Source: a virus (Duplodnaviria; Caudoviricetes). From it: 64,000 bases of DNA. The translations under genes were made by a program, and so were the position numbers. Where the stretch lies: IMG/VR virus record IMGVR_UViG_3300020029_000569, positions 28,207 to 92,206 of that record; one strand, 5' to 3'. Every line of letters starts with the position of its first letter. Within the stretch, counting starts at the first letter, position 1. Shown here one piece after another: positions 2,077-62,650 of this stretch. Below the pieces are notes generated by a model, which did not search any database, was not told the DNA's origin, and saw only the letters and a program-made list of their open reading frames with translations.

Positions 2077-2111
2077 AACATATTTAAAACAAAAAATTAA
2101 AATTTAAAATT

Positions 2112-3590: not shown

Positions 3591-3628
3591 TCAATTAAAC
3601 ATTTAACTATTAAACCAAATATAAAAAA

Positions 3629-4558: not shown

Positions 4559-4572
4559 AAATTTAATATATT

Positions 4573-5187
4573 ATGGCAACAGTAACTAATGGCTTCAAAA
4601 TTTGGGATTCAACTAACTTTATTAGCTGCTGCTCCGCAGGTAGCGGTTCAGGAGACCCTTCAAATGTCATTCAATGCGGTGAAGGTTGGAATCCAAGACC
4701 AGCGCAAATAACCCCCAAATATAATTGTGATATTGGTACAATAACATGGTTTTTGAATGACAACATTACTGGGTCATATCCATCGGTAGATGGTGCAAGA
4801 AACGGTATTGCAGTCACCAATCCAATGACAAATGAAGTTACTCTTTGGGACGTAACAGGTTCTACACCTGCCGAAAAACTTGCAGAATTTTTGCCGATTT
4901 GTAATTGTACGGACTGTACAGGTAATGTGGATTCATTAGCAGGCGAGTACGAATGTGATTACCCAGATGTTCCTGTGGATGCTTATTGCTATAATGTTGT
5001 ATTCGTAGGTGACGGACGAGACAATACATTGAAACTATTTGCAATGAGATATAACGCATACCTAGTAGGCTATCCATTCCAAACAGCTTACAACCCTACA
5101 ACCGGCAGCACAACTTATAGAGTTTGTCTGAACAGACCTATTGCACAAATAGGAAATCCATCAAGTCAAACTTGGACGTTGGTTTAA
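4573..5187 (+). CDS. Cys-rich virion protein (auxiliary capsid/decoration candidate)
   Basis: 204 aa; last gene before the terminator of the capsid operon. Confidence 0.45.
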   Translation: MATVTNGFKIWDSTNFISCCSAGSGSGDPSNVIQCGEGWNPRPAQITPKYNCDIGTITWFLNDNITGSYPSVDGARNGIAVTNPMTNEVTLWDVTGSTPAEKLAEFLPICNCTDCTGNVDSLAGEYECDYPDVPVDAYCYNVVFVGDGRDNTLKLFAMRYNAYLVGYPFQTAYNPTTGSTTYRVCLNRPIAQIGNPSSQTWTLV

Positions 5188-5214
5188 TAGGGGTATTTTA
5201 ATATTTACCACCGT

Positions 5215-5248
5215 TGGGGTTGCCGTGAACGGTAGCCCCATTTTTTTT
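5215..5248 (+). terminator. Rho-independent terminator
   Basis: GGGGTTGCCG-tgaa-CGGTAGCCCC stem-loop followed by A and T8. Confidence 0.8.
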
Positions 5249-5271
5249 AAATAACACAAAATTAAAATGTA

Positions 5272-35052: not shown

Positions 35053-35280
35053 TTATAAAAAATCTTTTACATCACATTCTAATACCTCAGCTATTAATTT
35101 TAAGGTCGTTATCTTACTTCCGTAATGTCCGTTTTCTATCATGCAAATAGCCGTAAAATCCATGTTGCATAATTTCCCCATTTCACGGATATTAATACCC
35201 CTTGAACGTCTTATTATTCGCATTTTTGCGCCCATGCTAACCAAATAAGGGTCTTTTACTATTTCTCTTTTTTGTCGCAT
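35053..35280 (-). CDS. XRE/Cro-C1 helix-turn-helix regulator
   Basis: RIIRRSRGINIREMG...ICMIENG...TLKLIAEVLEC pattern; overlaps the transposase 3' end. Confidence 0.85.
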   Translation of the reverse strand: MRQKREIVKDPYLVSMGAKMRIIRRSRGINIREMGKLCNMDFTAICMIENGHYGSKITTLKLIAEVLECDVKDFL

Positions 35281-36203
35281 GTTGAAGTTAATTTTTTATA
35301 GTTCAAATTTCCATTACAGTTACTCAATGCTGCCTGAAATCTATCGGACTGACATATTTGTTTGCTGTTATATCTAAAAGCGTTTTCATTGCAATACCGT
35401 TGCAAGTGTTTAGGACTTACAAAGTGGTGAATACCTGCGATTTGCTTTTTTAATATATTCCAATATCCCTCTATCGTATTAGTATGCACTACTAAATTTT
35501 CAGTATATCTTACATATTCATCGGCTCTATGATAAACACTTTCATGTTTATATTCTCCGCTTACTTGTCTGTATCCGCTTTTTTCATCTGATACCATAGT
35601 ACTATTTGGCTTAACAAATTCTTTAACTGCCTGAACTAATGTACTTGCATCAGTATCGGGTATTACTTTTGTTTTTACTTTGCCATTTCTCTGAACTGCA
35701 CCAAATACAGGTGTTTTATTATCCAATGGCTTTTTACCTTTCTTTTTACTTCTATGTATATTGCCTAATTTGCCCCCGATAAACGTCTCGTCGCATTCCA
35801 CAACATTTTCAAGCAAAGCAGGTGCGCTATCTTTCAGCATTTCACGGATACGGTGGTTTAAATGCCATGCTGATTTTTGAGTAATACCGAGCCACCCAGC
35901 TAACTGCAAACTGCTAATACCCTTACTATGTACAGTAAGTATGTAAGTAGCTAAAAACCACTTTGTAAGGGGGATTTTAGTATTCTCATACACAGAGCCA
36001 ACAAGTACAGAAAATTTAAAACCGTTGCATTGCTTTTCACGACATTTAAATGTTTTACGATTACTAAAACGACAAACATTTATAGAGCCACATTGAGGGC
36101 AGGCAGGCGTGCCGTTCCACCTCTGCAACTCTAAATACTTTCTGCACTTTTCATCAGTATTGAAGCGTTTTTGAAATTCTAATAAGTTTTTGAAGTGTAT
36201 CAT
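35259..36203 (-). mobile_element. IS1595-family (ISXO2-like) transposase
   Basis: N-terminal Zn ribbon (CPQC..CREKQC), KGISSLQL HTH, DDE-type motifs VECDETF, VSDE, HTNTIEGYW, FRYN; element ends not resolved. Confidence 0.92.
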
Positions 36204-45693: not shown

Positions 45694-45882
45694 ATGAACA
45701 AACAAATTAAAGATATTTTAGAAAAGCACGTTGACCTTAAATTTATAGGCAATGGTACATTCGCAGAAAACCTAAATAACGCCATCATTGATATATGCAG
45801 CAGGCAAATTGAAGTTACCGCAAAACAACTATCAAAGTACTTAAAGAAAGTAGAATTAACTTATAAAAACATCTCAAAATGA
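45694..45882 (+). CDS. Hypothetical protein
   Basis: 62 aa; overlaps the next start. Confidence 0.5.
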   Translation: MNKQIKDILEKHVDLKFIGNGTFAENLNNAIIDICSRQIEVTAKQLSKYLKKVELTYKNISK

Positions 45883-46358
45883 ACAAACAAACAAATGAGG
45901 GGCTGCGGAAGCCACTCGATAAAATAATAGCACACATGAAAAGTTGTGCAGAATATGCCGAAAAAGAAGGAGAAAACATGGATGATGTATCATGGGACAT
46001 GGAGGAGGGTATTTTAATATCATACAATGATGCTAAACTTATACTAAGCGAACTACTCAGCACTCAAAAAATGGGAGTGGAAGGGGATGGGTGGGCAGAT
46101 GATTTAAATTCGGAAGAACTGCACCCTGATAGTGTAAGGCTATTAGAAATAACATTTGAAGAACTGCGATTAAAAATGATCAAAAGCCAGAAAAAATACG
46201 GATATACAAACGGATGGCTGACCTCAAATTGGGAAGATGAATGCAGAGAACAATTAATACAGCATTTATACAAAGGCGATCCGCTTGATGTAGCTATATA
46301 CGCATTGTTTATGATTTATAGAGGTTGGTCAACTAACCCCACCAACCCGAACCGATAA
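45879..46358 (+). CDS. Phage protein with KGDPxDVA motif (MazG-like fold possible)
   Basis: C-terminal KKYGY..W..HLYKGDPLDVAIYALF. Confidence 0.5.
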   Translation: MNKQTNEGLRKPLDKIIAHMKSCAEYAEKEGENMDDVSWDMEEGILISYNDAKLILSELLSTQKMGVEGDGWADDLNSEELHPDSVRLLEITFEELRLKMIKSQKKYGYTNGWLTSNWEDECREQLIQHLYKGDPLDVAIYALFMIYRGWSTNPTNPNR

Positions 46359-46384: not shown

Positions 46385-47191
46385 TAACGGTCTGACGCTA
46401 TACGAAGGCAGGGAATAAGATGCACTCCCTTTCAGCCTTGCACAAATGATAAATAGACTTGTTTATTTGAAAAATTATATTTATCTTTGTGGTATGAAAA
46501 ATTGTTACGTTTACATACACAAAAAAGCAGACACGAAAGAAGTGTTTTACGTTGGAATAGGAAACCAATTAAAATATAGGAGAGCTTATCAGGTTACTGC
46601 AAATCGTAGAAGCAAAGAATGGGCAAGGGTTGTTGAGAAACACGGAGTTGAGGTTGAAGTATTTGCGGATAATTTAACAAGAGAAGAAGCTTTTGAAATA
46701 GAAATTTCTCTTATTAAAAAATATGGCAGAATAGACTTAGGCAATGGTTGTTTAGTGAATATGACAAAAGGTGGAGATGGTATTTATGAATTATCAGAAG
46801 AAGCTAAAAAACGAAATCCGAGAAATAGGGGGCAGAAAAGAGCAGAACACGCAACAAGAATTACTAAAGAAAAACTAACTGGTAGAGTTTTAAGTGAGGA
46901 AACAAAACACAAGATGAGGTTGTCTAAATTAGGTAAAAAACAATCAAAAGAGCATTTAGAAAAGAGAAAGCAAGGTTTAAAAAACACACATTATAAGGGT
47001 AGGACAATTTTAAATACTGAAACCAATGAAACATTTAACTCTATTTCAGAAGCAGCAAGGTTTTATAATATTGAAATTTCTACACTAAATAGAAAGCTAA
47101 ATGGCAAAACCAAAAACGATACGAATTTAATTATTAAATAAAGAAACGCTCACTTTAGCAGTACGCCCCTGCTTTTGTATAGCGTATGTTA
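46385..47191 (+). repeat. attC-like site 1, interrupted by a GIY-YIG gene
   Basis: TAAC ggtctg ACGCTATACGAAGGCAGGG (46395-46413) ... CCCTGCTTTTGTATAGCGT (47167-47185) at GTTA. Confidence 0.75.
46494..47141 (+). CDS. GIY-YIG homing endonuclease with NUMOD3/NUMOD1-type DNA-binding repeats
   Basis: YVYIH..FYVGIG..R..E..LVNMTKGGDG; LSEETKHKMRLSK; FNSISEAAR; own TATCTTTG box at 46482-46489. Confidence 0.88.
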   Translation: MKNCYVYIHKKADTKEVFYVGIGNQLKYRRAYQVTANRRSKEWARVVEKHGVEVEVFADNLTREEAFEIEISLIKKYGRIDLGNGCLVNMTKGGDGIYELSEEAKKRNPRNRGQKRAEHATRITKEKLTGRVLSEETKHKMRLSKLGKKQSKEHLEKRKQGLKNTHYKGRTILNTETNETFNSISEAARFYNIEISTLNRKLNGKTKNDTNLIIK

Positions 47192-47496: not shown

Positions 47497-47505
47497 AATG
47501 CCCTA

Positions 47506-47598
47506 TAACGTTTTGCGGCTTTGTGTCTGTTTGCCCCTTGCACAAAGTTTCAAGTTACCACAAATGCTGATGGGGCAAATAGCACAAAACCGCTGTTA
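47506..47598 (+). repeat. attC-like site 2 (93 bp)
   Basis: TAAC gtttt GCGGCTTTGTGTCTGTTTGCCCC ... GGGGCAAATAGCACAAAACCGC t GTTA. Confidence 0.8.
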
Positions 47599-47626
47599 GG
47601 CGTATGTATTTAAAAACTTTGACGAA

Positions 47627-48286
47627 ATGATAAAGCACCCTGCAACGTACACAAATAGTTTCATTCCAAAATTTGCTGAACTGCTTATTGGATGTGAAAA
47701 CGTACTTGACATTTTCGGAGGCATTGGAAAACTTGCCCTGATAAAAGAACACGGATTTACTGGCAAAGTAATCTGTAATGAATTAGAACGAGAATGGGCG
47801 GAAACATCACCGTATAATGTTGATGAATGGCATATTGGAGATGCTGCGAATATGCAGTGGGCTGAAAGTAACTCTTTTGATGCAATATGCACAAGCCCGA
47901 CCTATGGCAATAGAATGGCTGACCACCATAACGCAAAAGATGGAAGCAAAAGAGTTACTTACAAACATTTTTTAGGGCGGGATTTGAACGAAGCTAATAC
48001 TGGTAGAATGCAATGGGGTGATAAATACCGAGAAAAGCACTTGGAGATTTACAAAGAATGTGCAAGGGTTCTAAAAAATGGTGGGCTTATGATTGTGAAT
48101 GTTTCCGACCATATCCGAAAAGGGCAAGTTGTGAATGTGGTAGAATGGCATAAGGAAGCACTAACAAATTTTGGAATGAAACTTATAGACGAAATAAAAA
48201 TTGAAACACCGAGAATGGGATTTGGGCAGAACGCTAAAAGCAGGGTGCAACACGAATGTATCTTGGTCTTTCGGCATGGCGTATAA
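47627..48286 (+). CDS. Cassette B: SAM-dependent DNA methyltransferase (N4C/N6A-type)
   Basis: LDIFGGIG SAM motif then TSPTY catalytic-like motif; stop codon is the TAA of TAAC. Confidence 0.8.
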   Translation: MIKHPATYTNSFIPKFAELLIGCENVLDIFGGIGKLALIKEHGFTGKVICNELEREWAETSPYNVDEWHIGDAANMQWAESNSFDAICTSPTYGNRMADHHNAKDGSKRVTYKHFLGRDLNEANTGRMQWGDKYREKHLEIYKECARVLKNGGLMIVNVSDHIRKGQVVNVVEWHKEALTNFGMKLIDEIKIETPRMGFGQNAKSRVQHECILVFRHGV

Positions 48287-48409
48287 CGTTTTGCGTGTAT
48301 AAGAAGTGGCGGATTAGAAATCCAAAACTTTCAGCAAACGCAGAACTTTGATAGAATGACAAAACTTTAAATTAACCAAAAAAACCGCCATTTTTTATAC
48401 ACGCTGTTA
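48284..48409 (+). repeat. attC-like site 3 (126 bp)
   Basis: TAAC gttttg CGTGTATAAGAAGTGGCGG ... CCGCCATTTTTTATACACG ct GTTA. Confidence 0.85.
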
Positions 48410-48512
48410 TAAGCTGGTGCGGTTTATTAACGCAGAATTTGAATCAAAGAACGAAACCTTTTTCTTTTCTTTTTTGAGCGATGGCAAAAATAAATTTGAA
48501 AAATTTAAAAAT

Positions 48513-49355
48513 ATGATTGATATAAACAAAAATTACAATGAAAGCAATTTAGAAACAATGGCAAAGATGCCTGATTGTTTTGTAGATTTAACGGTAACAT
48601 CACCACCGTATGATAATTTAAGAACCTATGAGAACGATGACTACTTAACTTGTGGTGAGTTTGAAGATATGGTTAAGGAGCTTTGGCGAATTACAAAAGA
48701 TGGTGGTGTAGTTGTTTGGATTGTAGGTGATTCAGTTAAAAACGGAAACGAAAGTGGGACAAGTTTTTATCATGCTTTGACTTTTAAGAAGTATGGTTGG
48801 AACTTATTTGATACTATGATTTACTTTAAAAATGGCGGTCTAAATTCAGGTGCGAATAACTCATACATTCAAAAGTTTGAGTATATGTTTGTTTTTTCAA
48901 AGGGTAAAATAAAAACAACAAACATTATTGAGGATAGACCAAACGAACACACAAAGCCACGAAAAAAGAAAAAACGAAACCCTGATGGCACATTTAGAAT
49001 ACAGGAAGTGCTAACGAAAGAACAAGGCAAGAGATATAATATTTGGTGTGTAAATACAGGAATACCGCACTCAACCCAAGACAAAATCGCTTATGAGCAT
49101 CCTGCAATATTCCCAGAAGTACTTGCTAATGACCACATAATAAGTTGGAGTAATGAAGGTGATTTGGTTTACGACCCTTTTATGGGAAGTGGAACAACTG
49201 CTAAAATGAGTATTCTAAATAATAGAAATTGGATTGGAAGCGAAATATCTTCTGAATATTGTGAGATTATTGAAGAACGTATTAAAAAAGCGTGGGAAGA
49301 AAAAAGAAAAGAAAAAGATTTACAAGCAGGAACTCTATTCGGAGACGAAATGTAG
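48513..49355 (+). CDS. Cassette C: beta-class N4C/N6A DNA methyltransferase
   Basis: TSPPY, HPAIFP, DPFMGSGTT; likely ATG at 48513. Confidence 0.92.
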   Translation: MIDINKNYNESNLETMAKMPDCFVDLTVTSPPYDNLRTYENDDYLTCGEFEDMVKELWRITKDGGVVVWIVGDSVKNGNESGTSFYHALTFKKYGWNLFDTMIYFKNGGLNSGANNSYIQKFEYMFVFSKGKIKTTNIIEDRPNEHTKPRKKKKRNPDGTFRIQEVLTKEQGKRYNIWCVNTGIPHSTQDKIAYEHPAIFPEVLANDHIISWSNEGDLVYDPFMGSGTTAKMSILNNRNWIGSEISSEYCEIIEERIKKAWEEKRKEKDLQAGTLFGDEM

Positions 49356-49365
49356 CACTTGCTTA

Positions 49366-49435
49366 TAACGTTAAAACTACACGCTGGTTGCCTATTTATT
49401 CCAATGCTTCGGCAACTAGCTTGTAGTGATTGTTA
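49366..49435 (+). repeat. attC-like site 4 (70 bp)
   Basis: TAAC gttaaa ACTACACGCTGGTTGCC ... GGCAACTAGCTTGTAGT gatt GTTA. Confidence 0.8.
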
Positions 49436-49542
49436 GTAGCTGTTTATCTAATTTACATTTATTTTGAAAATATTTGTAATTTTATTAGGTTATACAAAAA
49501 TTAGTTGTATATTTGTATAACAAAATCAAACAAATACAAATT

Positions 49543-49767
49543 ATGAAAACATCAACTTACACTTACCAATTTACAAACGGAACTTTTACAATCACAAAAG
49601 GAATAAGAACAAAATTTGATTGGTTTGTTGAAGTAGAATTAAATCCAATTGAATGTGATGGATATGTTGAAAAGAGATTTATAAAACTAGACCAAAATTT
49701 ATTTTTAACTTTAAAAAATGCAAAAGAAACCACAATTAAATTACTAACTAAATTTAACTTATTATAA
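49543..49767 (+). CDS. Cassette D gene 1, hypothetical
   Basis: ATG at 49543 after a TATATTTG box at 49508-49515. Confidence 0.6.
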   Translation: MKTSTYTYQFTNGTFTITKGIRTKFDWFVEVELNPIECDGYVEKRFIKLDQNLFLTLKNAKETTIKLLTKFNLL

Positions 49768-50180
49768 TGAAACTAATTCCAATGACTAATTTTGTTTTCC
49801 AGCAAAAAGAAAAATTAACAGATATTTACGGTAATGCAAAAGATGTGTTAGAAATTGACAAATCAAGAATAAATTTTATTCACAGCGTTTCAAATTACGC
49901 AAAGTTCCTAAATGAAACAATTTCACTAGGAATGCTAGTTCCTTGTGATGAAAAAGGAATTGAAATAATTATAGATACTGAGCACCGAGAAGATAGCACA
50001 AGTTGGTCACCTGATGAAATTGAACAATATAAAAAAGCTGAAACCGAAATTTATTTAAAAACAACAATAGATTTAGATACTGCTAAATTTCACGTTAAGC
50101 AAAAAAGAACAATTGAATATTTTACCTCTTTTAATATTGAAATATCCGAGTATGCTATTAAAAAATTTCAATTAGAATAG
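49767..50180 (+). CDS. Cassette D gene 2, hypothetical phage protein
   Basis: 137 aa; MKLIPMTNFV..NYAKFL..LGMLVPCDE. Confidence 0.65.
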   Translation: MKLIPMTNFVFQQKEKLTDIYGNAKDVLEIDKSRINFIHSVSNYAKFLNETISLGMLVPCDEKGIEIIIDTEHREDSTSWSPDEIEQYKKAETEIYLKTTIDLDTAKFHVKQKRTIEYFTSFNIEISEYAIKKFQLE

Positions 50181-50182
50181 TT

Positions 50183-50350
50183 ATGCAAAGACAATCAATA
50201 ATAGTATTTATTCAAGGCGATAGAATAGAAACGTATGGAAACTTAAAAAAGTGCTGTGAATGTGAGAACTTGAAATATCACACTTTAGCACGTTTAAAAT
50301 TTCCAATTCGGCTAAATGATGTAGTTATACACAAAACGCTCTTTAAATAG
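50183..50350 (+). CDS. Cassette D gene 3, 55-aa putative DNA-binding protein
   Basis: Hand translation MQRQSIIVFIQGDRIETYGNLKKCCECENLKYHTLARLK... Confidence 0.55.
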   Translation: MQRQSIIVFIQGDRIETYGNLKKCCECENLKYHTLARLKFPIRLNDVVIHKTLFK

Positions 50351-50354
50351 CTAC

Positions 50355-50481
50355 TAACGTATCGGTGCTATACGATGTGGCGGATTTTTAGTACTAAAGT
50401 CCAATACGAAGCACCAAAGTTGAATTTAAAATAAATGTTTAATCGAATCACGTCAGCCGCCATATTGTATAGCACTTGTTA
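50355..50481 (+). repeat. attC-like site 5 (127 bp)
   Basis: TAAC gtatcg GTGCTATACGATGTGGCGG ... CCGCCATATTGTATAGCAC tt GTTA. Confidence 0.85.
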
Positions 50482-50512
50482 GCGGATGCCGTTTCTTCAC
50501 AATAATTTCAAA

Positions 50513-50749
50513 ATGGAATACAAAGCACAAGAATTAAAAAAAGATTTAATTACAAAGCGTTGCATTGATAACGATATGACAATGGATGAAGCTTGTAAAG
50601 AAATAGGAATTTCAAAAGCTACATTATCAAGGTTGGAAAAGTCAAAACTGCCCGATGTCGAAACTCTTGGTAAGGTATGCACTTGGTTAGGGACAGAGCC
50701 AAATAAATACTTTGTCATTGTTCGCAAGCGTCAAGACGGTTTCCGCTAA
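50513..50749 (+). CDS. Cassette E: XRE-family HTH regulator
   Basis: MTMDEACKEIGISKATLSRLEKSKLPDVETLGKVCTWL; stop in TAAC. Confidence 0.85.
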   Translation: MEYKAQELKKDLITKRCIDNDMTMDEACKEIGISKATLSRLEKSKLPDVETLGKVCTWLGTEPNKYFVIVRKRQDGFR

Positions 50750-50871
50750 CGGTCGAGTATTGCCGAAGGTGGGGCATTATACCACTAATGTTTAATTGAA
50801 ATACAAAACTTGATAATATGAAAAATGTTGATTTGAAAAACGAAACCCCCACTTGCGGCAATACTTTGTTA
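50747..50871 (+). repeat. attC-like site 6 (125 bp)
   Basis: TAAC ggtcg AGTATTGCCGAAGGTGGGG ... CCCCACTTGCGGCAATACT tt GTTA. Confidence 0.85.
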
Positions 50872-51207
50872 TGCCCCGTTTTGGGTCAAACTTACAACTA
50901 CTTTGATGACGGGAAGATTAGACCAAGTAGAAGAATGGAAGTTGTTATTACAGAAATTATCCCATTTAATGAAATTGATGCAGAAACTTTGGAATCTTGG
51001 AAAGAAGAAGTTGAAGAATGTAATTGGCTTTACGCTAAAGAAACTGATTTCTTTGTAAAGGGTGATTTAAAAGTTTCTGATGATAAGATTGAAAAGATAA
51101 TTTTTGTAAGAACTATCAATAATAATGATGGTTGGTTTAGTCTTGGATGGTGGGGAGGTAGATTAGATATTGACGGTTCGTTGAACGCTCTGTTAAATGG
51201 GGCATAA
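50818..51207 (+). CDS. Cassette F: hypothetical protein (start codon inside site 6)
   Basis: 129 aa; stop in TAAC. Confidence 0.7.
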   Translation: MKNVDLKNETPTCGNTLLCPVLGQTYNYFDDGKIRPSRRMEVVITEIIPFNEIDAETLESWKEEVEECNWLYAKETDFFVKGDLKVSDDKIEKIIFVRTINNNDGWFSLGWWGGRLDIDGSLNALLNGA

Positions 51208-51330
51208 CGTAAAAGCATTGCTGTCAGTGGCGGAAATTGAAGCACAAAAGTTAAATTATGCAGAAAAGTTTATTTGAAAATATACAGTTGAATGAAGTAC
51301 ATCAGCCGCCATTGCAGCAATGCAGTGTTA
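51205..51330 (+). repeat. attC-like site 7 (126 bp)
   Basis: TAAC gtaaaa GCATTGCTGTCAGTGGCGG ... CCGCCATTGCAGCAATGC agt GTTA. Confidence 0.85.
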
Positions 51331-52271
51331 GCCGCAGTACTTTGTTATTAGGTGATTGCTTAATTGAAAGCGATAAAATTGAAAGCGGAACAGTTGATTT
51401 GATATTGACTGATTTACCTTATGGAAATATGGGAATGGAAGGTACAAATCACGGAATGACAGGGAAAGTTAGCTGGGATGAAACTATAAACCCAAGTGAT
51501 TTATTTGTGGTTGCGGATAGAATTTTGCGAAAAAACGGCAAAATGATTTTGTTTAGCCAAGAACCATATACAAACGAATTGATAAGTAAGGCAATACCTA
51601 ATTTACCATATAACTATAAGGCTTTTTGGGAGAAAGACCATTTTGCCAACGCTTTAAATGCTAAAAAAGCAATGTTAAATTATGCAGAAGAAATACTTAT
51701 ATACAGCAAAAACAACCCAAAACACGACTTTGAAGGATTACACCCATTGAGAGTATACTTTTTAACTCAAAAAGAAGAAAGTAAATTAACCGATAGCGAT
51801 ATAAAAAAAATACTTGGTAACGGAATGGGTGGGCATTACTTTACTAATGGCAGTCAGTTTTGTTTACCTACTTTGGCTAATTATGAAAAACTACAAACTA
51901 CTGGATTTTTTAAGCGTGATTGGAATGAATTAAAGCAAATAGATACGGAATACCGAACCGAACTATTAAAGCAAATGAATGACAAATACCCAAGCACCTT
52001 TAACCTATGGGAAGGCAACAAATACAAAAGCAACATCCTGAAATACAAAAAGGATTACAACGGCTACCACCCCACACAAAAACCTGTTTTATTGCTCGAA
52101 GATTTAATCAAGACTTTCAGTAATGAAAATGATTTAGTAGTTGATTTGACAATGGGAAGCGGCTCAACTGGTGTAGCCTGTCGAAATACAAACAGAAGAT
52201 TTATCGGCATAGAGAAAGATGAAAAGTATTTTGAGATTGCAGTACGGAGGGTGTCTGCGTATTGCGGCTAA
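51258..52271 (+). CDS. Cassette G: beta-class N6A DNA methyltransferase (start inside site 7)
   Basis: TDLPY, HPTQKP, DLTMGSGSTG; stop in TAAC. Confidence 0.92.
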   Translation: MQKSLFENIQLNEVHQPPLQQCSVSRSTLLLGDCLIESDKIESGTVDLILTDLPYGNMGMEGTNHGMTGKVSWDETINPSDLFVVADRILRKNGKMILFSQEPYTNELISKAIPNLPYNYKAFWEKDHFANALNAKKAMLNYAEEILIYSKNNPKHDFEGLHPLRVYFLTQKEESKLTDSDIKKILGNGMGGHYFTNGSQFCLPTLANYEKLQTTGFFKRDWNELKQIDTEYRTELLKQMNDKYPSTFNLWEGNKYKSNILKYKKDYNGYHPTQKPVLLLEDLIKTFSNENDLVVDLTMGSGSTGVACRNTNRRFIGIEKDEKYFEIAVRRVSAYCG

Positions 52272-52388
52272 CGGTTTCGGGCTTGGCGAAGTGGCTGAAC
52301 CCGAAGCTAAACTGGAACACAGAACTTTAAAATTAAGAACGAATGATTGATAGAATTACCGAACAGCCATTTCGCCAAACCCGTGTTA
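52269..52388 (+). repeat. attC-like site 8 (120 bp)
   Basis: TAAC ggttt CGGGCTTGGCGAAGTGGCTG ... CAGCCATTTCGCCAAACCCG t GTTA. Confidence 0.85.
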
Positions 52389-53149
52389 TGTGCAGGGCGG
52401 TTGATAACCTTGAACTCCTTTTGTCGCAACCTGATGAAAGTGTAGATTTGATTTACTGCGACATTCTTTATGGAACTGGTAGAAATTTCGGTGATTACCA
52501 AGACTTAAAACCGATTAGAAGCGAAATTGAAGCACATTATTTGCCACGATTAAAAGAAATGCACCGAGTATTAAAACAAAACGGCTCAATTTATTTGCAA
52601 ATGGATTATAGAATATCCCATTGGATTAGGTTGATAATGGATGATATTTTTGGGTATGATAATTTTGTAAATGAAATTATATGGTGCTACACTATGCCAA
52701 ACAACAACAAAAGGAGATTTAATGCAAAACACGATAATATATTTTCTTACGCAAAAACTAAAGACTATACATTTAATTGGCAAAGCGTATTAACAGATTA
52801 TTCCGAAAGTAGTAAAGAAAGAGGTAAGTATGGAAGTAACTCAATGATGGGTAAAGCCGACAGCCCTTTATCTAAAAACGGAGGTAAAATTATGGAAGAT
52901 TGGATGGTAATACACACACTTAAAGGCAATTCAAAAGAGTATTCAAAATACCCAACCCAAAAGCCAAAAGCATTAATTGAACGAATTATAAAAGCAAGTT
53001 CAAACGAAGGAGATACGGTTGCAGATTACTATTTAGGTTCAGGAACGACAGCAGTAGTTTGTAAAGAATTAAACCGAAATTTTATAGGTTGTGACATTAA
53101 CCCAAAGGCTATTGAAATAACGAAAGCTCGATTGAATGGTGGTCAGTAG
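52343..53149 (+). CDS. Cassette H: beta-class DNA methyltransferase with variant catalytic motif
   Basis: LIYCDILY (in place of DPPY), YPTQKP, DYYLGSGTT. Confidence 0.85.
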   Translation: MIDRITEQPFRQTRVMCRAVDNLELLLSQPDESVDLIYCDILYGTGRNFGDYQDLKPIRSEIEAHYLPRLKEMHRVLKQNGSIYLQMDYRISHWIRLIMDDIFGYDNFVNEIIWCYTMPNNNKRRFNAKHDNIFSYAKTKDYTFNWQSVLTDYSESSKERGKYGSNSMMGKADSPLSKNGGKIMEDWMVIHTLKGNSKEYSKYPTQKPKALIERIIKASSNEGDTVADYYLGSGTTAVVCKELNRNFIGCDINPKAIEITKARLNGGQ

Positions 53150-53275
53150 CATTGCACATAACTACTCGCTTGCTCTGTAAAACTACCTATATAAGTACTA
53201 TATGGAGTTATAGGCGCACCAATGGTTTGTTAATGACTATCACAATTATTCCGTAAATCCGCAAAAATTTAAACA

Positions 53276-55479: not shown

Positions 55480-55660
55480 TGTATTTAGTCTTTATGTTGT
55501 TTCTTAATGTTAATCAAAAAATCAATTCCATCCATTATGAACATTATTAGCAGAATGAATGCAACAAAATAAGGGTGTCCAGATTCATCTATACTACCCT
55601 TTCTAATAGCATCGCTTACAAATAATAGTCCAAAAAATATTGCTGTTCTCATTGTCTTTA

Positions 55661-55930
55661 TTATTTAAGTTCAGTTAATAAATTCCTCATTCTATCCACT
55701 AATGAATCATCATAAGTTTCTTGTATTCTTTTGCAAGCCAATTCCAATACTTCTAATAGTCTTTCATGGTTATTAACCGCTTTACAGATTAGTTTTGCAT
55801 TTGCATAATTTTTAGTAGTATTAGGCAATTCAAGGATAGAATCGGGACTATGATAATCCCCTACGATTTCTACTTCTGATTTGCTTGTGCGTAGTACCCA
55901 ATCTAAGGGTGTATGTTTTGTTTCTGCCAT
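55661..55930 (-). CDS. Hypothetical phage protein (KHTP.W ... ANAKLI..A family)
   Basis: Motif pattern common in small phage proteins. Confidence 0.65.
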   Translation of the reverse strand: MAETKHTPLDWVLRTSKSEVEIVGDYHSPDSILELPNTTKNYANAKLICKAVNNHERLLEVLELACKRIQETYDDSLVDRMRNLLTELK

Positions 55931-55940
55931 TGTCTTTATT

Positions 55941-56195
55941 TTAAAGTATTATATTATTCCCTTTTGTAATTGGATTACCCATTCCTAACTTCATGTGTTT
56001 ACCAAAAATATTCATAAAATCCCATAATTGAAATTCAGTTACTCCGAATATATCTGCTCTTTTTTTATATTCTTCTATTGGTTTTCTAAACTCAATAGGT
56101 AAATAACTATCATCGTGTTCTTTCCATAATTTATAACCCGAATCAGTTAATTCTGCTTTTATGGATTGGTTGAAGTTCATTATCAAATCTGCCAT
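55941..56195 (-). CDS. Hypothetical phage protein (FQLWDFMNIFG motif)
   Basis: 84-aa ORF with AAGACAATG start context. Confidence 0.65.
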   Translation of the reverse strand: MADLIMNFNQSIKAELTDSGYKLWKEHDDSYLPIEFRKPIEEYKKRADIFGVTEFQLWDFMNIFGKHMKLGMGNPITKGNNIIL

Positions 56196-56334
56196 TGTCT
56201 TTATTTTTAACGTGTAATAAATATTAGAAACCCTATTGGTATGCTAAGTATAACCATCATAATAACTATAAAGATAACTATATGTTCTATTAGGTTTTGC
56301 TTAATTAGTTTTTTATTTTCTTTACTTGCTTCCA

Positions 56335-56697
56335 TTATTCTATTGTTATTGTTTTATCATCAAAATTAACATCTATATGGTTTGGGCAAAGAAAATCAGA
56401 AGTCATTTTAAAGTTATCGTCTATAACTGTAAACCCTTCATCAGTAATAATAAAAGAATCGTCTATTAAGTTATCACCTTTAATATCTTCTTTTTCATAA
56501 TATGAGTATTCAATTTCAATAGATACGCTACGAATGATAGATATAATACTTTTTATACCCCATTCTCTTGCTTCTACTTCTGCACTCCATTTAATTACTG
56601 CAAGTGCTGAATAATCATCTACTTCAATACCTAAATGCTTATCAAGTCCGTAAATGTCTATCTTGGGTGTATCGCTTATTTTTGTTGTAAATTCCAT
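56335..56697 (-). CDS. Hypothetical protein, paralog of 54842..55210
   Basis: MEFTTK..KWSAEVEAREWGIK..DVNFDDKTITIE. Confidence 0.7.
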   Translation of the reverse strand: MEFTTKISDTPKIDIYGLDKHLGIEVDDYSALAVIKWSAEVEAREWGIKSIISIIRSVSIEIEYSYYEKEDIKGDNLIDDSFIITDEGFTVIDDNFKMTSDFLCPNHIDVNFDDKTITIE

Positions 56698-56701
56698 TGT
56701 C

Positions 56702-56899
56702 TTATAGTTGTTTAATAGTTTCCAAATGAGTTTGAATAAAGTTAAGTCTTAATCCTGATTGCTCGGCAAGTGATTGTATTGCATGGCTTTTACCATCCTG
56801 CACCAATTGTTTAAGTCCATAGCATAATCTAAATTGTTTTAGTATGAGGTCTTTATGCCACTGTTCTAAGGGGTAATTACATTGAGGAGGTTTAGTCAT
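56702..56899 (-). CDS. Hypothetical protein
   Basis: 65 aa; AAGACAATG start. Confidence 0.55.
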   Translation of the reverse strand: MTKPPQCNYPLEQWHKDLILKQFRLCYGLKQLVQDGKSHAIQSLAEQSGLRLNFIQTHLETIKQL

Positions 56900-56905
56900 T
56901 GTCTT

Positions 56906-57187
56906 TTATTTTAAACTTATACAAGTTGTATTTTCTACCGTATCAATTGAAATAACGGTTAAATTTTGCCCTAATTTTATAGTACTGTCTATTCCTGCTA
57001 TTTCCATGTAATACGCTGATTCTTCCCAACAGAAATCACAGTTACAACTCTTGTCGTGGTAACGTGGGTCAACCGTTGAGTAAATTATTTCATCGTCTGC
57101 TTGAACGTCTTTAAATTCACTTGTTGAAATAATACCCATTATAGTAAGTACTATACATAGAAGGGTTATTTTGATTGCTGTTTGCAT
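56906..57187 (-). CDS. Membrane-anchored protein with HxxxCxCxxC motif
   Basis: Hydrophobic N-terminus; HDKSCNCDFC. Confidence 0.55.
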   Translation of the reverse strand: MQTAIKITLLCIVLTIMGIISTSEFKDVQADDEIIYSTVDPRYHDKSCNCDFCWEESAYYMEIAGIDSTIKLGQNLTVISIDTVENTTCISLK

Positions 57188-57189
57188 GA

Positions 57190-57417
57190 TTAGGAATTTA
57201 TAAGTGATTGTAAAAGTGAATTATCTTGTGGTTTGTTGAGGTAAAATTCAGCATCCTCCTTTATTGATTCATCGGTGGTATTATCTTTAGCAATCCATCC
57301 TTTCATAACTACCCCTTTTACTAATACTCTTACCCCTTTATTGTAATTTGAATCAGTGTTTAGCCTTCTTACTTGTACTTCTGTATTTTCGTTTATTTTT
57401 ATAGTTCTGTATGCCAT
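57190..57417 (-). CDS. Hypothetical protein
   Basis: 75 aa; AAGACAATG start. Confidence 0.6.
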   Translation of the reverse strand: MAYRTIKINENTEVQVRRLNTDSNYNKGVRVLVKGVVMKGWIAKDNTTDESIKEDAEFYLNKPQDNSLLQSLINS

Positions 57418-57427
57418 TGTCTTTAAT

Positions 57428-57793
57428 TTATTTGTAAACTGTTGGTGTTTCTTCCTGTGATAATTCAGCGTGTATCTTCTTTCCGTACTTGCTAACTTTG
57501 TTTATTTTATATGTATCTCCACTATTGTTAATGTACCAAATATTATTTTTACCGTCTGCACCTAAACTGGGGATTGCCAATCTTCCCATGTAATAATATC
57601 CCTTTGAATACCAAACTTTTTTACCCTTTGCTTTTTTGTCATCTGCGCTGTCTTTACCTGATAAAATATATTTACCCTTCGCTGTCTTTAAAAAATAGTA
57701 TTCTCCTGTATGTTTATACTCAACTATCAAAGGTGTGTTGTAAGTTAAATTTGAATAGGTTATATTAACTGCAAATATTTTTGTAATTTCCAT
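57428..57793 (-). CDS. Hypothetical protein
   Basis: 121 aa; AAGACAATG start. Confidence 0.6.
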   Translation of the reverse strand: MEITKIFAVNITYSNLTYNTPLIVEYKHTGEYYFLKTAKGKYILSGKDSADDKKAKGKKVWYSKGYYYMGRLAIPSLGADGKNNIWYINNSGDTYKINKVSKYGKKIHAELSQEETPTVYK

Positions 57794-57806
57794 TGTCTTT
57801 AGTTTA

Positions 57807-58079
57807 TTAGTTTTCTATTTCGTACATAGGTACGTTACTTTTATTTGTATGTGCATAAGAATCGAAATTTAGAAATGAGGCTTTGCAAGTTTTTACTTCT
57901 AATTTTAATTCATTTTTGCAAACTAAATAGGCTGGTTTGTTTAATTCCATTAAAATCTCCATTTTCTTATCATCAATATCTTTAGCAATTTGATACATTG
58001 TTTGTTTCTTTCTTTCGTCTATTGACTTTCTAATATAGTAGCCATTTTCTTTAAGTTCTGAAATTTTTATCTTTCTCAT
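57807..58079 (-). CDS. Hypothetical protein
   Basis: 90 aa; AAGACAATG start. Confidence 0.6.
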   Translation of the reverse strand: MRKIKISELKENGYYIRKSIDERKKQTMYQIAKDIDDKKMEILMELNKPAYLVCKNELKLEVKTCKASFLNFDSYAHTNKSNVPMYEIEN

Positions 58080-58084
58080 TGTCT

Positions 58085-58279
58085 TTAGTTTAAAAAGGTT
58101 GTTCTATTTATAAAATACTCATTGGCGGTAAATTCAGCATCTTTAAGGCTGTCATAACTCCACGCTATGCAACTAATATCAGAAGGTTTACCTGTGCATA
58201 CTTTAAAAGTACCTTTGCTATCCTTTGTAATGTAGCAAACTATCTTTCTATTTTTCTTGTATTGTTTTACTATTGCCAT
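58085..58279 (-). CDS. Hypothetical protein
   Basis: 64 aa; AAGACAATG start. Confidence 0.6.
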   Translation of the reverse strand: MAIVKQYKKNRKIVCYITKDSKGTFKVCTGKPSDISCIAWSYDSLKDAEFTANEYFINRTTFLN

Positions 58280-58284
58280 TGTCT

Positions 58285-58581
58285 TTACATTTTAACCGTT
58301 TTACTTCTGCTTATTTCAATAGCCTTTACAATGTGTTCTATACTTGTATTTTGGTCTCTGCTTGCATACATCTGGGATTGTATGTAAGCATCAGAATAAC
58401 CACCGCTTACCCATTTATCCGCTTTTTTTTGGCAATGTGGCGTAATTGTCTTAGCGGTTATCTCTGCCTGTATTTCATCCAAAGTAAAAGGATTATACTG
58501 TTTATGTTCTTCCCTGTCTTTCATCCTTATTAATTCGTCTAAGGAGTAAAGGGTAATATTATTATCTTGTTCGGTTCTCAT
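58285..58581 (-). CDS. Hypothetical protein
   Basis: 98-aa ORF. Confidence 0.55.
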   Translation of the reverse strand: MRTEQDNNITLYSLDELIRMKDREEHKQYNPFTLDEIQAEITAKTITPHCQKKADKWVSGGYSDAYIQSQMYASRDQNTSIEHIVKAIEISRSKTVKM

Positions 58582-58592
58582 TTTATTTGATT

Positions 58593-58982
58593 TTAAAAGT
58601 TATTGTTTGTAAATTCTACTGCTGTACATTTTTGAAAGTCCTCTTTTGGAAATATACCCAAATTAAAAGACTTACCTACAAAATACTCATCTACTGATTT
58701 CTCGGTACTCTGTGCGCTTACATTAGTTTCATAATTATATGAAGGATCGGCAAATAGTACTTTTACGCTATTCAGTTTATCAGGGGCAATTAGTTTTAAT
58801 TCGTCTGCCATATATGCACCCATTGAAGTATTAATAAGATAGTTTTTAATTCCGTCCTTGTCTGTCAATATCTCGGTAATTTCTCCTAACTGAGTAAACG
58901 CTCCGTTTATGTCTTTGTAGCATACCCGCAAACCTTGTTTTAGTTCGCTGTCTTTAGTGATTTTATTTATTAAAATTGTCAT
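58593..58982 (-). CDS. Hypothetical protein
   Basis: 129 aa; AAGACAATG start. Confidence 0.6.
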   Translation of the reverse strand: MTILINKITKDSELKQGLRVCYKDINGAFTQLGEITEILTDKDGIKNYLINTSMGAYMADELKLIAPDKLNSVKVLFADPSYNYETNVSAQSTEKSVDEYFVGKSFNLGIFPKEDFQKCTAVEFTNNNF

Positions 58983-59008
58983 TGTCTTTAAGTTGTTTTT
59001 ATAAGTGA

Positions 59009-60052
59009 TTAATATTTAATTTGCGGTTTGTTCTCGTTTCCGTCTCTATCCAATACTATATAATTATCAAAAATTGTTTTAGTGTCCTGTATGTCTGTGT
59101 AATCTACGCTCCATTTCCACGCATTGCCCGGAATACTCATCCAATTTAGTACCGTTACGCTTTTGGCATTTAATGATTTAACGGGGTAGAATGTGCCTCT
59201 ATATTTAACGTGTGTACATTTCATTTCTTTTAAACTGGCTTTACTGTGTATTACAATACCGCAACTTAATAGCTTCTCTTTGAAAAATGCTAATTTGTCG
59301 TTTTCTTCATTGATTTGTACCTGTAGTTTTTCCTTTCTTTCATCTGAAACATAAGCAGGATTTTCTTTTGTGCTTTGATGTCCGCTTACTCTATCCCAAT
59401 ATCCTACGCCTGTAAAGTATCGGTTTAATTCTCTTAATCTGGCTTCTACTTCCTTTATTCTGTTGCCCAAATAAACGGGGTTTGAATACTGCGCCCCCTC
59501 TGCTGTATATTTGGCGGTTTCTGCCCTGTCTTTGTAGTATGATGCTTTTTTATCCTCTTCAATGCTTTTGCCCATTCTATTATGGTTTCTTTCAATCAAT
59601 GCTCTATGTCTTTTCTCGCTGTGGTGTCCAATTTTGATTGGTTCGCCTAAACTTAAAAAGTCTTTACCCTCGTTTGATGCTTCATAGTACTGTTGGCTTC
59701 TCTTTTCTGCGTTCTCTGCATATTTTTCAAACCTTTCTGCCCTGTTTTCTGCTTTCTCTTGCTGCACTTCTATTTGTTCTGCAAAACTCAATTTTTCGCC
59801 CCTTTCGCCCTGATAAATTGCGCCTAATTGATTGCAGACATTTTCAGCACTCCATGTATTATTCTTTGCCCTGCTTACCCATGCACCGGCATAAGATGAA
59901 AATAGAAAATTACTTTTGATCATTTTCTTTTGATCTTCTGGCATACTTATATAGTCTGCCTTTTCAAATTTTAATTCTATTTTCCCAGTTTCAAGGTTTT
60001 TATAATATTGTCTTGTTTCTGTGCCTGTAGTGGCTGTGTTTGTTGTTTGCAT
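59009..60052 (-). CDS. DUF3560-domain protein
   Basis: LGEPIKIGHHSEKRHR signature. Confidence 0.8.
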   Translation of the reverse strand: MQTTNTATTGTETRQYYKNLETGKIELKFEKADYISMPEDQKKMIKSNFLFSSYAGAWVSRAKNNTWSAENVCNQLGAIYQGERGEKLSFAEQIEVQQEKAENRAERFEKYAENAEKRSQQYYEASNEGKDFLSLGEPIKIGHHSEKRHRALIERNHNRMGKSIEEDKKASYYKDRAETAKYTAEGAQYSNPVYLGNRIKEVEARLRELNRYFTGVGYWDRVSGHQSTKENPAYVSDERKEKLQVQINEENDKLAFFKEKLLSCGIVIHSKASLKEMKCTHVKYRGTFYPVKSLNAKSVTVLNWMSIPGNAWKWSVDYTDIQDTKTIFDNYIVLDRDGNENKPQIKY

Positions 60053-60150
60053 GATAGTTTGTTGCGCCTGTTATGGTCTGCGCTTGACATTTATAGATTT
60101 GTGATTGTGAAAAGATTAATTTGTTTTATGGCTGTATAGTCGGTTTGTAA

Positions 60151-60477
60151 TTAGATGTTTTCTGTTTTAATTATTATTAGGTCTAAGGCGTCATGTTGAT
60201 TGTATTCTATGGTATATTTTTTATTTTTCATCCATTTAGGAGCGCTTGCGCCCGCTTTTACACATTCGTCTATTAGTGCGCCCACTTGCCTTATATCTAC
60301 GGTATCAAGCCATGAATTAAAATCTTTCTTAAAGTCTGAAAGTTTAGTGTGAAAACTATCTCTTCTTATGAGTGCCTTTGTTCCTTGCATAAGTACGCAG
60401 TCGGTTGCTTTTTTGCTATCCACAAAGGTTTGATAGAATAGCTTTTTTACTGCTTCAAAATTTGGTTGTGTTTGCAT
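60151..60477 (-). CDS. Hypothetical protein
   Basis: 108-aa ORF. Confidence 0.55.
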   Translation of the reverse strand: MQTQPNFEAVKKLFYQTFVDSKKATDCVLMQGTKALIRRDSFHTKLSDFKKDFNSWLDTVDIRQVGALIDECVKAGASAPKWMKNKKYTIEYNQHDALDLIIIKTENI

Positions 60478-60519
60478 AGTATTATAGTTTTATAGTTTTA
60501 TTGAGTGATTATGTTTAAT

Positions 60520-60867
60520 TTATGCCCAAAGTTTTTTGGCTGTTTCGACTTTCTTAGTCAAGTCGTTGACCTCTTTTTTTGCATACGACATACTAAAAGA
60601 GTGTTCTTGTTTGCGTTCTCCGCTTTTATATTGTCGGTGCAGTTCGGTTGCCTTTGTCTTTAATTGCAGGTGTATTTTAGCCAATTTAAGGGCTGCCTTA
60701 GTCTTGAATACCCTAACAGATGCAATTCCCCTTTTTACGGTTGTTTCTACTTTTTTAGGGCTGTGGATAATAATATACCCCAATGAGGTAACACCTTGCA
60801 ATTTTCGTTTAATGTTCTGCGGTTTTACCGTTGTCTTAACTGAGTTTTTAATTTTTAAAAGTTTCAT
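60520..60867 (-). CDS. Chimeric ORF carrying a copy of the DUF3560 protein's C-terminus
   Basis: Last ~40 aa nearly identical to those of 61958..62650. Confidence 0.55.
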   Translation of the reverse strand: MKLLKIKNSVKTTVKPQNIKRKLQGVTSLGYIIIHSPKKVETTVKRGIASVRVFKTKAALKLAKIHLQLKTKATELHRQYKSGERKQEHSFSMSYAKKEVNDLTKKVETAKKLWA

Positions 60868-60937
60868 GTTTTGTTGAGTTTAAATATTAGTAATTTATTA
60901 AAATATAAATAGTTTATGAGAGTGAATTAATGGCGGG

Positions 60938-61228
60938 TTAAGCGATTTCGATTTGTACCATGTAGCCCGTGCAGTTATGCCTGACTTCTTTTGCCATTTC
61001 GCTGTACCTGCTTTGCTTTGTCTTATAAATTGAAACTTGCGTTCTTTTTGATACGTTCTCATATCTGTAAATCTCTCCTTTATGCAAAGTGTTCATGTGC
61101 GGTGTTTTTGTACCATTCATCAGTTTTGCGCAATCGTTGTAAATAATACCGTTATTTGGTAATTGTGCGCATAAAAATTGAATTGCTGCGCGTTTAGTAT
61201 TAAATTCTTGATTAATTTTAGTTGCCAT
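60938..61228 (-). CDS. Hypothetical protein
   Basis: 96-aa ORF. Confidence 0.55.
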   Translation of the reverse strand: MATKINQEFNTKRAAIQFLCAQLPNNGIIYNDCAKLMNGTKTPHMNTLHKGEIYRYENVSKRTQVSIYKTKQSRYSEMAKEVRHNCTGYMVQIEIA

Positions 61229-61352
61229 AAAATAATTGGTGTTTTGTTAAGTGTTAAAAAAATGATTGTGAAAAAATAGTAGGTATTTATGCGAGTGGGG
61301 TTAATTGATCGTATTTTACTATTTCGTATATCATTGTCTTTGAGTTTAGGAG

Positions 61353-61957: not shown

Positions 61958-62650
61958 TTATGCCCAAAGTTTTTTGGCTGTTTCTAATTTCTTTGTCAAT
62001 TCGTTAACGTCTTTTTTAGCATAACTCATACTAAATGAGTGTTCCTGTTTTCGTTCTCCGCATTTGTATTGTCGGTGCAATTCTATTGCCTCCTCAAGTT
62101 TGAACTCAAAATACTCTATACTTTCAGGAAGTGACAAATCTATTTTATTCGCCATCTTTTCCCAATATTGCGCCCTGCTTTCATATCCTTCTACTTTTTT
62201 GCCTTCTTCAACACTTTTGTGCATACGGTTGTGGTTTCTTTCAATTAAAGCTCTATGTCTTTTTTCGCTGTGGTGTCCTATCTTAATAGGTTCCCCCAAA
62301 CTTAAAAAGTCTTTGCCCTCGTCTGCTGCTGCCCAAAGTTCGTTACTCCTTTTTTCTGCATTAGCCGCCCAACCTTGTAATCGTTCCGCTTTTGCCTTTG
62401 CCCTTTCCTGTGAATTAAAGCCGTCAGTACGGGTAATTGAATAGTAATAGCTCCCATCTTTGCCCCGTCCCACAAAATTGTGTACATAACATTCATGCTC
62501 TTTGCCGTATTGAGTAGTTAATGTTATTACCTCGTCTTTTTGGTGTTGCTCGGTGCATTTTGCTACCCATACATTGGGGCAATATTTCGCATAAGTATTA
62601 ACGCCTGTTTGTGTTGCTGTGCCGTCTATGGCTGTTGAGTTGTTGTTCAT
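61958..62650 (-). CDS. DUF3560-domain protein
   Basis: NTYAKYCPNVWVAKC start; LGEPIKIGHHSEKRHR. Confidence 0.85.
   Translation of the reverse strand: MNNNSTAIDGTATQTGVNTYAKYCPNVWVAKCTEQHQKDEVITLTTQYGKEHECYVHNFVGRGKDGSYYYSITRTDGFNSQERAKAKAERLQGWAANAEKRSNELWAAADEGKDFLSLGEPIKIGHHSEKRHRALIERNHNRMHKSVEEGKKVEGYESRAQYWEKMANKIDLSLPESIEYFEFKLEEAIELHRQYKCGERKQEHSFSMSYAKKDVNELTKKLETAKKLWA

Follow-up and report, generated by a model that had tools for sequence, protein, structure and literature searches.

Homing endonucleases target conserved genes, and in integrons the bottom strand is the substrate for recombination. T4-type phages reportedly carry promoter-early stem-loop (PeSL) cassettes, a description attributed to Arbiol et al. 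in 2010, and these cassettes are thought to act through homologous recombination. Selfish elements targeting integron attC sites have also been described, namely the group IIC-attC introns (PMC3001079) and the IS1111-attC insertion sequences (PMC11187229). Qi et al. 2023 (PMC9892861) identified clusters of attC sites lacking integron integrases (CALINs) in virulent phages, including Polaribacter phage P12002L, which carries methyltransferase cassettes, and showed that IntI1 recombined one P12002L attC, using the bottom strand; the phages of that study have two to three sites each, with no endonuclease within a site, and the word 'homing' is absent from the article. Here, we analysed a 64,000-nt stretch (hereafter the window) of the IMG/VR virus record IMGVR_UViG_3300020029_000569 and focused on positions 46385-47191, referred to as site 1. 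Site 1 is very probably one of eight folded, attC-like recombination sites bounding gene cassettes in this Bacteroidota-type phage, with a variable loop that was invaded by a free-standing GIY-YIG homing endonuclease gene carrying a putative promoter of its own.

Site 1 consists of an attC-like hairpin of about 120-126 nt split by a 687-nt insert. Its left half (46385..46457, + strand) contains the outer TAAC motif (46385-46388), a spacer, the left arm (46395-46413) and the left part of the loop, and its right half (47145..47191, + strand) contains the right part of the loop, the right arm (47167-47185) and the GTTA motif (47188-47191). The arms, of 19 nt each, form 17 Watson-Crick pairs (89%) and two G-T pairs, and are 753 nt apart, whereas 66-73 nt separate the arms of the sibling sites; site 1 therefore corresponds to an ordinary site plus about 0.7 kb. 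The left half was found to be 88-96% identical to its counterpart in about 45 other loci. An earlier note on this DNA, made from the sequence alone, had described two 19-bp arms with two G-T pairs about 750 bp apart, enclosing a GIY-YIG/NUMOD gene with its own promoter-type box, and a left remnant sharing a sequence with the loop of site 2. All these elements were recovered: the arms as described, an open reading frame (ORF) at 46446/46494-47141 with a PHROG 314 match, the box TATCTTTG at 46482-46489, and the 11-mer CCTTGCACAAA, common to 46435-46445 and the loop of site 2 (~47537-47547). The claim that excision would leave a site of sibling size holds for the five siblings of 120-127 nt but not for the shorter S2 (93 nt) and S4 (70 nt), and the empty alleles described below set the junctions of the insert, proposed in the note to lie at ~46457-47141, at 46458-47144.

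An exact search with 18 nt of the left arm retrieved 37 IMG/VR contigs, about 29 of which had, 69-73 nt after the left arm, a right arm matching that of site 1 exactly, with both G-T pairs in the same places. Chance complementarity of the site 1 arms was therefore excluded. None of the approximately 36 site-1-type sites among these IMG/VR matches was occupied. The uninterrupted allele was also identified in six to seven Bacteroidota assemblies, its carriers including Olivibacter sitiensis, Pedobacter alpinus, Daejeonella, Chryseobacterium and a Chitinophagales metagenome-assembled genome. In the alignment, the empty loop reads ...GATAAATAGA-TGCACG-AACGCTCAC..., and the window has ...GATAAATAGA, the insert and then AACGCTCAC. 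Furthermore, contigs from two wastewater/freshwater metagenome runs containing the phage joined position 46457 to 47145 via exactly TGCACG; these contigs did not bridge the whole stretch. The alignment and the joined contigs thus define the inserted module as 46458..47144 (+ strand, 687 nt), in place of about 6 nt (TGCACG) of the uninterrupted loop. In the same two runs, the summed contig depth was 110-550 for the hairpin halves and 10-13 for the gene, and empty sites far outnumber occupied ones in the sampled wastewater and freshwater communities.

Three other explanations for the insert were considered and rejected. One was an assembly artefact. A group I intron does not fit, since the flanks are intergenic and no ribozyme match was obtained, and the gene is not an ordinary cassette, since the empty allele is unbroken across the junction.

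The gene itself (46494..47141, + strand) encodes a protein of 215 aa, and gene callers may extend it to the ATG in the loop at 46446 (231 aa). Its product matched PHROG 314 ('homing endonuclease') with an E value of 1.5e-19. In an alignment of 26 relatives, residues Y7, Y19, G21, E70 and N89 were invariant and R30 was nearly so; Y7, Y19, R30, E70 and N89 correspond to the GIY-YIG catalytic set, the motif in the window protein being VYIH...FYVGIG. The domains detected in the relatives were NUMOD3 (18/26), GIY-YIG (6/26) and I-HmuI NUMOD-like (4/26), and a profile of these relatives gave a weak GIY-YIG match against the PDB (E 0.019). The AlphaFold2 (AF2) model had a pLDDT (predicted local distance difference test) of 82, and its top 16 Foldseek matches were GIY-YIG domains (UvrC, I-TevI) or the I-TevI DNA-binding domain, with probabilities of 0.85-0.99. 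Pairwise comparisons of eight alleles yielded dN/dS values of 0.07-0.21, with dS values of up to 1.4, and the nuclease gene is under purifying selection. The hairpin halves are about 88-96% identical even though dS in the gene reaches 1.4, and both gene and hairpin are therefore under selection.

A promoter-like sequence precedes the gene within the insert (46466..46489, + strand), with TTTG at 46466-46469 and a Bacteroidota-type -7 box (TATCTTTG) that ends 4 nt ahead of the ATG at 46494. The -7 box and its spacing to the ATG were conserved in 11/11 occupied alleles, including those of the relatives at 54-62% identity. From a reading of the sequence, we infer that 46466-46489 has promoter activity, and the 4-nt spacing would give a leaderless mRNA. 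A contig from an RNA library crosses an occupied site, but DNA carry-over is possible and transcription is not proven thereby.

The protein search for homologues yielded eight clusters at 80-93% identity and three clusters at 54-62%, and contigs were fetched for five of the former and all three of the latter. In seven metagenome contigs that are independent of one another, close homologues (80-93% aa identity; L053, L054/55, L056, L057, L080 and L081/82) had the same junctions within this hairpin type, and the neighbouring genes differ both upstream and downstream; in L057, the left half of the hairpin is chimeric. The homologues at 54-62% (L077-L079) occupied the corresponding place in the loop of a second hairpin type, which has different arms (ATATTGCCGATGGTGGGG and its partner), and empty alleles of this second type were also identified (L170, L176 and L169), with flanks matching those of the occupied L078. 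Among the members of one nuclease sub-lineage (dS 0.06), no two had the same upstream cassette, a pattern compatible with the gene having homed repeatedly into different phages; recombination persisting at the occupied site may also account for it. The earlier note had proposed searching for an uninterrupted allele and for GIY-YIG homologues in the loops of other such sites. Both searches were positive, with empty alleles even in the same wastewater samples and homologues in the loops of seven contigs with the same hairpin and three with the second type.

The site-1-type hairpins also displayed other rearrangements. In L017, a site-1-type left half is fused to the right half of a site-8-type hairpin, in L036 and L044, other DNA is inserted at an earlier point of the site-1-type loop, and in L042, the right arm is replaced. 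Strong hairpins of like kind, with ends 370-633 nt apart, enclose non-nuclease ORFs (118, 85 and 95 aa) in L023:1191-1823 and L027:1034-1403, and loops, or pairs of like sites, can thus house other genes too. Finally, L003:2653-3255 contains a 200-aa ORF with an unrelated N-terminus (HPPC motif) followed by the last 84 residues of the nuclease at 76% identity, and resembles the vestige of a previous invasion at another location.

In a scan of the whole 92-kb record, sites with a TAAC-stem-loop-stem-GTTA organization occurred between 46.4 and 52.4 kb and nowhere else, exclusively on the + strand. With S7 and the two shorter sites, S2 and S4, included, the array comprises eight sites and a terminal TAAC half-site at 53159. 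After site 1, it extends over 47506..53162 (+ strand), with S2 (47506-47598, 93 nt), S3 (48284-48409), S4 (49366-49435, 70 nt), S5 (50355-50481), S6 (50747-50871), S7 (51205-51330), S8 (52269-52388), the terminal half-site and the cassettes, all these sites being on the + strand and S3 and S5-S8 falling within the 120-127 nt class. Four N6/N4 DNA methyltransferases are among the cargo of the cassettes. The 8 nt after the GTT of each site matched the reverse complement of the 8 nt before the AAC of the following site at 6, 3, 6, 7, 6, 7, 7 and 7 of 8 positions, whereas the corresponding match within one hairpin was only 1, 2, 5, 4, 4, 1, 3 and 4 of 8. For 43 non-redundant neighbouring pairs from other phage contigs, the mean was 5.2/8, versus 3.2 within a hairpin and 3.3 for pairs taken at random, and L016 and similar arrays reached 8-9/10 at nearly each step. 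This complementarity is the footprint left by cassettes circularising and crossing over at GTT (G|TT).

A 270-aa tyrosine recombinase was identified at the 3' end of a 12-site array in a 180-kb phage. In the 80 viral loci fetched with this recombinase (L083-L162, viral contigs), the density of sites was 0.75 per kb upstream (238 sites) and 0.007 per kb downstream (3 sites), with a strand ratio of 240 to 1 favouring the recombinase strand, and 46 of the 50 loci having more than 3 kb of upstream sequence contained at least one site. In L083, for example, an array at 263-5945 is followed by the recombinase at 6001-6810 on the same strand, and arrays reach 12 sites. The best model for the array-linked recombinase was NF040815 (XerA/integron integrase); it fell under the TIGR02249 cut-off and is without model positions ~181-237, the IntI-specific segment. 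The TIGR02249 integron integrase was above its cut-off in none of the five bacterial genomes carrying the hairpin. Three lines of evidence, the cassette ends, the linked recombinase and the published recombination by IntI1 of a phage attC (PMC9892861), point to integron-type DNA recombination sites, in agreement with the label 'attC-like' used in the earlier note. A three-site mini-array was also identified amid ordinary chromosomal genes in Olivibacter sitiensis DSM 17696 (L065:5245-6556 and L069:1216-2283), with one site-1-type site and a DinB-family gene as one of the cassettes, and these hairpins are therefore not limited to phages. The Olivibacter recombinase (355 aa), which passes the NF040815 cut-off, is encoded 1.1 kb from the mini-array and is 45% identical to the 270-aa phage enzyme.

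These arrays bear on whether the arms of site 1 could instead be the inverted repeats at the termini of a mobile element carrying the nuclease, the 125-nt empty hairpins being internally deleted copies similar to miniature inverted-repeat transposable elements. The identity of 88-96% between site-1-type hairpins over dozens of unrelated contexts, in several Bacteroidota orders, is as expected for a spreading element, and the summed metagenome depth of the hairpin is far above that of its flanks. However, hairpins of the same architecture but of many sequences form recombinase-linked arrays without a nuclease gene, the ends of the cassettes point to site-specific crossover at GTT, and the empty loops hold TGCACG, unbroken across the junction. 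Moreover, dS in the gene reaches 1.4 whereas the hairpin halves are about 90-96% identical, as expected if the hairpin is kept by selection and not by recent co-copying. GIY-YIG enzymes of this type are not known to be transposases. We therefore consider a transposable-element origin of the hairpins to be extremely unlikely.

Integron attC sites are imperfect hairpins of 57-141 bp with outer R''/R' boxes (RYYYAAC/GTTRRRY), inner L boxes, an unpaired spacer, a variable loop and extrahelical bases on the bottom strand. In the present array, the AAC and GTT trinucleotides were invariant and TAAC/GTTA was found in 8/8 sites, with GTTRRRY fully fitted by S2 only. An asymmetric spacer (4-6 nt versus 1-2 nt) lies between the R box and the arms of 19-23 bp, the total length of the sites is 70-127 nt, the arms lack bulged bases, and two conserved G-T pairs of the top strand, corresponding to A-C mismatches on the bottom strand, occupy fixed positions. 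Given the invariance of AAC and GTT (TAAC/GTTA) alone, the unbulged arms with their G-T pairs and the placement of the linked recombinase, we refer to the sites as attC-like rather than assigning them to canonical attC. The folds of the sites had z values of -4.2 to -5.8 relative to shuffled controls. The stop codons of four upstream genes correspond to the TAA of a TAAC box (48284, 50747, 51205 and 52269), and three downstream ORFs (50818, 51258 and 52343), two of which are methyltransferases, have their ATG start codons within the loops of sites 6-8, and their reading frames cross the right arm.

Such an overlap with coding sequences would suit hairpins acting chiefly in RNA, where they would serve between early genes for processing, termination or translation (compare the RNase III sites of T7). 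The non-Watson-Crick positions are G-T on the coding strand, each site folds better as the + strand, and the RNA-library contig over an occupied site, subject to the DNA carry-over mentioned above, would be compatible with this role. Nevertheless, an RNA role accounts neither for the complementarity between the two ends of a cassette, which is not seen within their own hairpins, nor for the location of the sites, which are 100-fold enriched directly upstream of a single tyrosine recombinase family, and an attC of the Polaribacter phage CALIN, with its methyltransferase cassettes, was recombined by IntI1 (PMC9892861). A principal function in RNA is therefore improbable, and the RNA and DNA recombination roles may coexist.

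The favoured reading of the hairpins as recombination sites raises the question of whether the occupied site 1 could still fold. At equilibrium, the predicted arm-pairing probability of the empty site was 0.97 for top-strand DNA and 0.78 for bottom-strand DNA; with the insert, it was 0.96 for the top strand and 0.01 for the bottom strand, kinetics being ignored in this calculation. The folding model predicts that the insert should cripple site 1 if the bottom strand is the substrate, and that it may not do so if the top strand is used. Of the consequences suggested in the earlier note, namely that the insert may be tolerated, hitch-hike with cassettes or inactivate the site, the last would accordingly be expected only with the bottom strand as substrate.

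In the scenario that we favour, a phage carrying the gene would meet DNA with an uninterrupted hairpin, in a co-infecting phage, a prophage or a host chromosome, and the enzyme would recognise the intact loop around ...AAATAGATGCACGAACGCT... and cut it. The break would then be repaired from the occupied allele, the hairpin halves of 50-70 nt providing the homology, and the gene would be copied in. The occupied allele would be immune, as the intact target is gone; no copy of the intact target was found elsewhere in the 92-kb record. As a landing place, the loop has two advantages: it is conserved across many phages, so that targets are abundant, and it lies outside the arms and the TAAC/GTTA boxes, which insertion need not destroy.

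Several observations weigh against this scenario. The window protein had no Pfam match at E<=0.01, a phmmer search of the PDB with this protein returned only noise, and the Foldseek E values were weak (0.02-0.3), although the matches were consistent. Hairpin halves of 50-70 nt are short as homology arms for break repair, the occupied contigs are short, and no pair of occupied and empty genomes sharing a backbone was observed. The 92-kb phage record encodes no recombinase of the tyrosine, serine or Y1 type; its array resembles a CALIN and may be inert. Finally, the relatives with less than 40% identity in IMG/VR (L003-L015, except for the L003 remnant) are ordinary free-standing genes outside hairpins. 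Loop targeting is therefore limited to this sub-lineage, in which it would be a property of two co-diverged nuclease/hairpin pairs.

The absence from this phage of the recombinase accompanying arrays elsewhere is also relevant to a possible domestication of the nuclease, which would then serve the array or the phage, for instance by cutting the arrays of competitors or by triggering cassette exchange after integrase loss. Strong purifying selection across a deep divergence would be consistent with such a service, as would the upstream cassettes, which all differ within the sub-lineage with a dS of 0.06. However, purifying selection is also expected of an actively homing gene, and the low occupancy (0/~36 IMG/VR sites, with a depth ~20-40 fold under that of the hairpin halves) suits a parasite better than a needed function, making domestication quite unlikely. 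A more daring extension of the homing scenario, which we regard as rather doubtful, is that the nuclease constitutes a gene drive on the phage integron-like system, breaking the hairpin of rivals, forcing repair from its own genome and dragging anti-restriction methyltransferase cassettes along. If this were true, the contents of the array would spread or shuffle by break repair even without a recombinase, as in this phage. In a bolder form of the gene-drive proposal, the folded hairpin would be recognised instead of duplex DNA.

The record to which the window belongs is a 92-kb virus with inverted terminal repeats, estimated to be 79% complete, the window being its final 64 kb (positions 28,207 to 92,206). 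DNA of this phage was found in wastewater, activated-sludge and freshwater metagenomes from several studies. The window contains large tail genes, Bacteroidota-style promoter boxes and an IS1595-family transposase (35259-36203, - strand; DDE_Tnp_IS1595 at 6.7e-39) with a zinc ribbon. Upstream of site 1, a gene from the ORF list (45879..46358, + strand) encodes a 159-aa protein of unknown function with weak PHROG matches, all of unknown function; it is the gene of a cassette that has site 1 at its end, and under an integron-like reading this cassette would include site 1 as far as the G of GTT. The expected 5' end of the first cassette (GTTACCTTTAC) had no more matches than expected by chance, and two near-matches at 41955 and 46504 were dropped because both lie within ORFs.

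No Rfam family matched across 45.5-54 kb, and the sole match of the 10-kb array in a megablast search against GenBank phages was 94 nt of site 2. Taken alone, site 2 (47505-47598) matched 37 records of Flavobacterium phages in GenBank, lillamy and hattifnatt among them, at 85-90% identity, and in the two records opened (L001 and L002) the match lies directly upstream of a 219-aa methyltransferase. In wastewater runs, the summed contig depth of site 2 was about 4000, versus about 8 on its flanks. Downstream of the array, the motif CATTGTCTTTA recurs at the starts of about ten minus-strand genes (55631-61346, - strand), on whose own strand it reads TAAAGACAATG, and is probably a shared translation or promoter signal. 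Two pairs of duplicated segments were also identified, 59523-59681 and 62172-62330 (79% identical) and 60520-60653 and 61958-62091 (87% identical).

The nuclease adds a new member to the free-standing GIY-YIG enzymes of phages. It resembles the T4 Seg enzymes and I-TevI in its probable N-terminal GIY-YIG domain, with conserved Tyr/Tyr/Arg/Glu/Asn, and in its putative NUMOD3-type linker repeats and C-terminal helix-turn-helix, and the locus resembles theirs in having a phage-borne gene with its own putative promoter, present or absent at a fixed site, where a few target bases are replaced. It differs in its target, which is the loop of a repeated recombination-site hairpin rather than a conserved protein or RNA gene or an ordinary intergenic gap, and in the pairing of two related nuclease lineages with two hairpin families. 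We found no literature report placing a homing endonuclease within the loop of an attC or attC-like site, and this association appears to be new.

The array resembles the P12002L-type CALINs, with which it shares attC-type hairpins in a Flavobacteriia-type phage, orphan N6/N4 methyltransferases and the lack of a phage integrase. It differs in having eight sites, one of which has a nuclease gene in its loop, and in that related phages carry a dedicated XerA/IntI-like recombinase 3' of arrays of up to 12 sites. Like the PeSL cassettes, the array has repeated stem-loops bounding small swappable gene units in a plastic phage region, but here the crossover is fixed at GTT and a tyrosine recombinase is linked to such arrays. 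In canonical integrons, IntI has a specific extra domain and diverges from the array, whereas the recombinase of the related phages is located downstream, on the same strand. This is an arrangement of a phage cassette system unlike that of classical integrons. The arrays directly upstream of a XerA/IntI-like recombinase in hundreds of Bacteroidota-type phage contigs make this protein a candidate enzyme, a result that may matter more than the endonuclease itself.

The loop can hold 0.7 kb of foreign DNA with both arms still conserved, and the empty and occupied alleles provide a natural pair for testing the effects of loop size and strand choice in recombination. Phage cassette arrays with counter-defence genes host their own parasites, which may move cassettes between phages. 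As for the group IIC-attC introns and IS1111-attC elements, a conserved recombination site of a cassette array serves as a repeated, tolerated landing place. Those elements are a retroelement ribozyme and an insertion sequence with a DEDD transposase, which recognise the sequence or structure of attC; here, a DNA endonuclease gene, presumably spread by break repair, occupies the variable loop rather than the stem or core, in Bacteroidota phages. The insert has neither a reverse transcriptase with a ribozyme nor a DEDD transposase, the GIY-YIG protein being its sole product. A nuclease lineage specialised on recombination-site loops thus unites two themes, the targets of homing endonucleases and the elements targeting attC, and the known attC-targeting elements resemble the insert in target choice, not in machinery.

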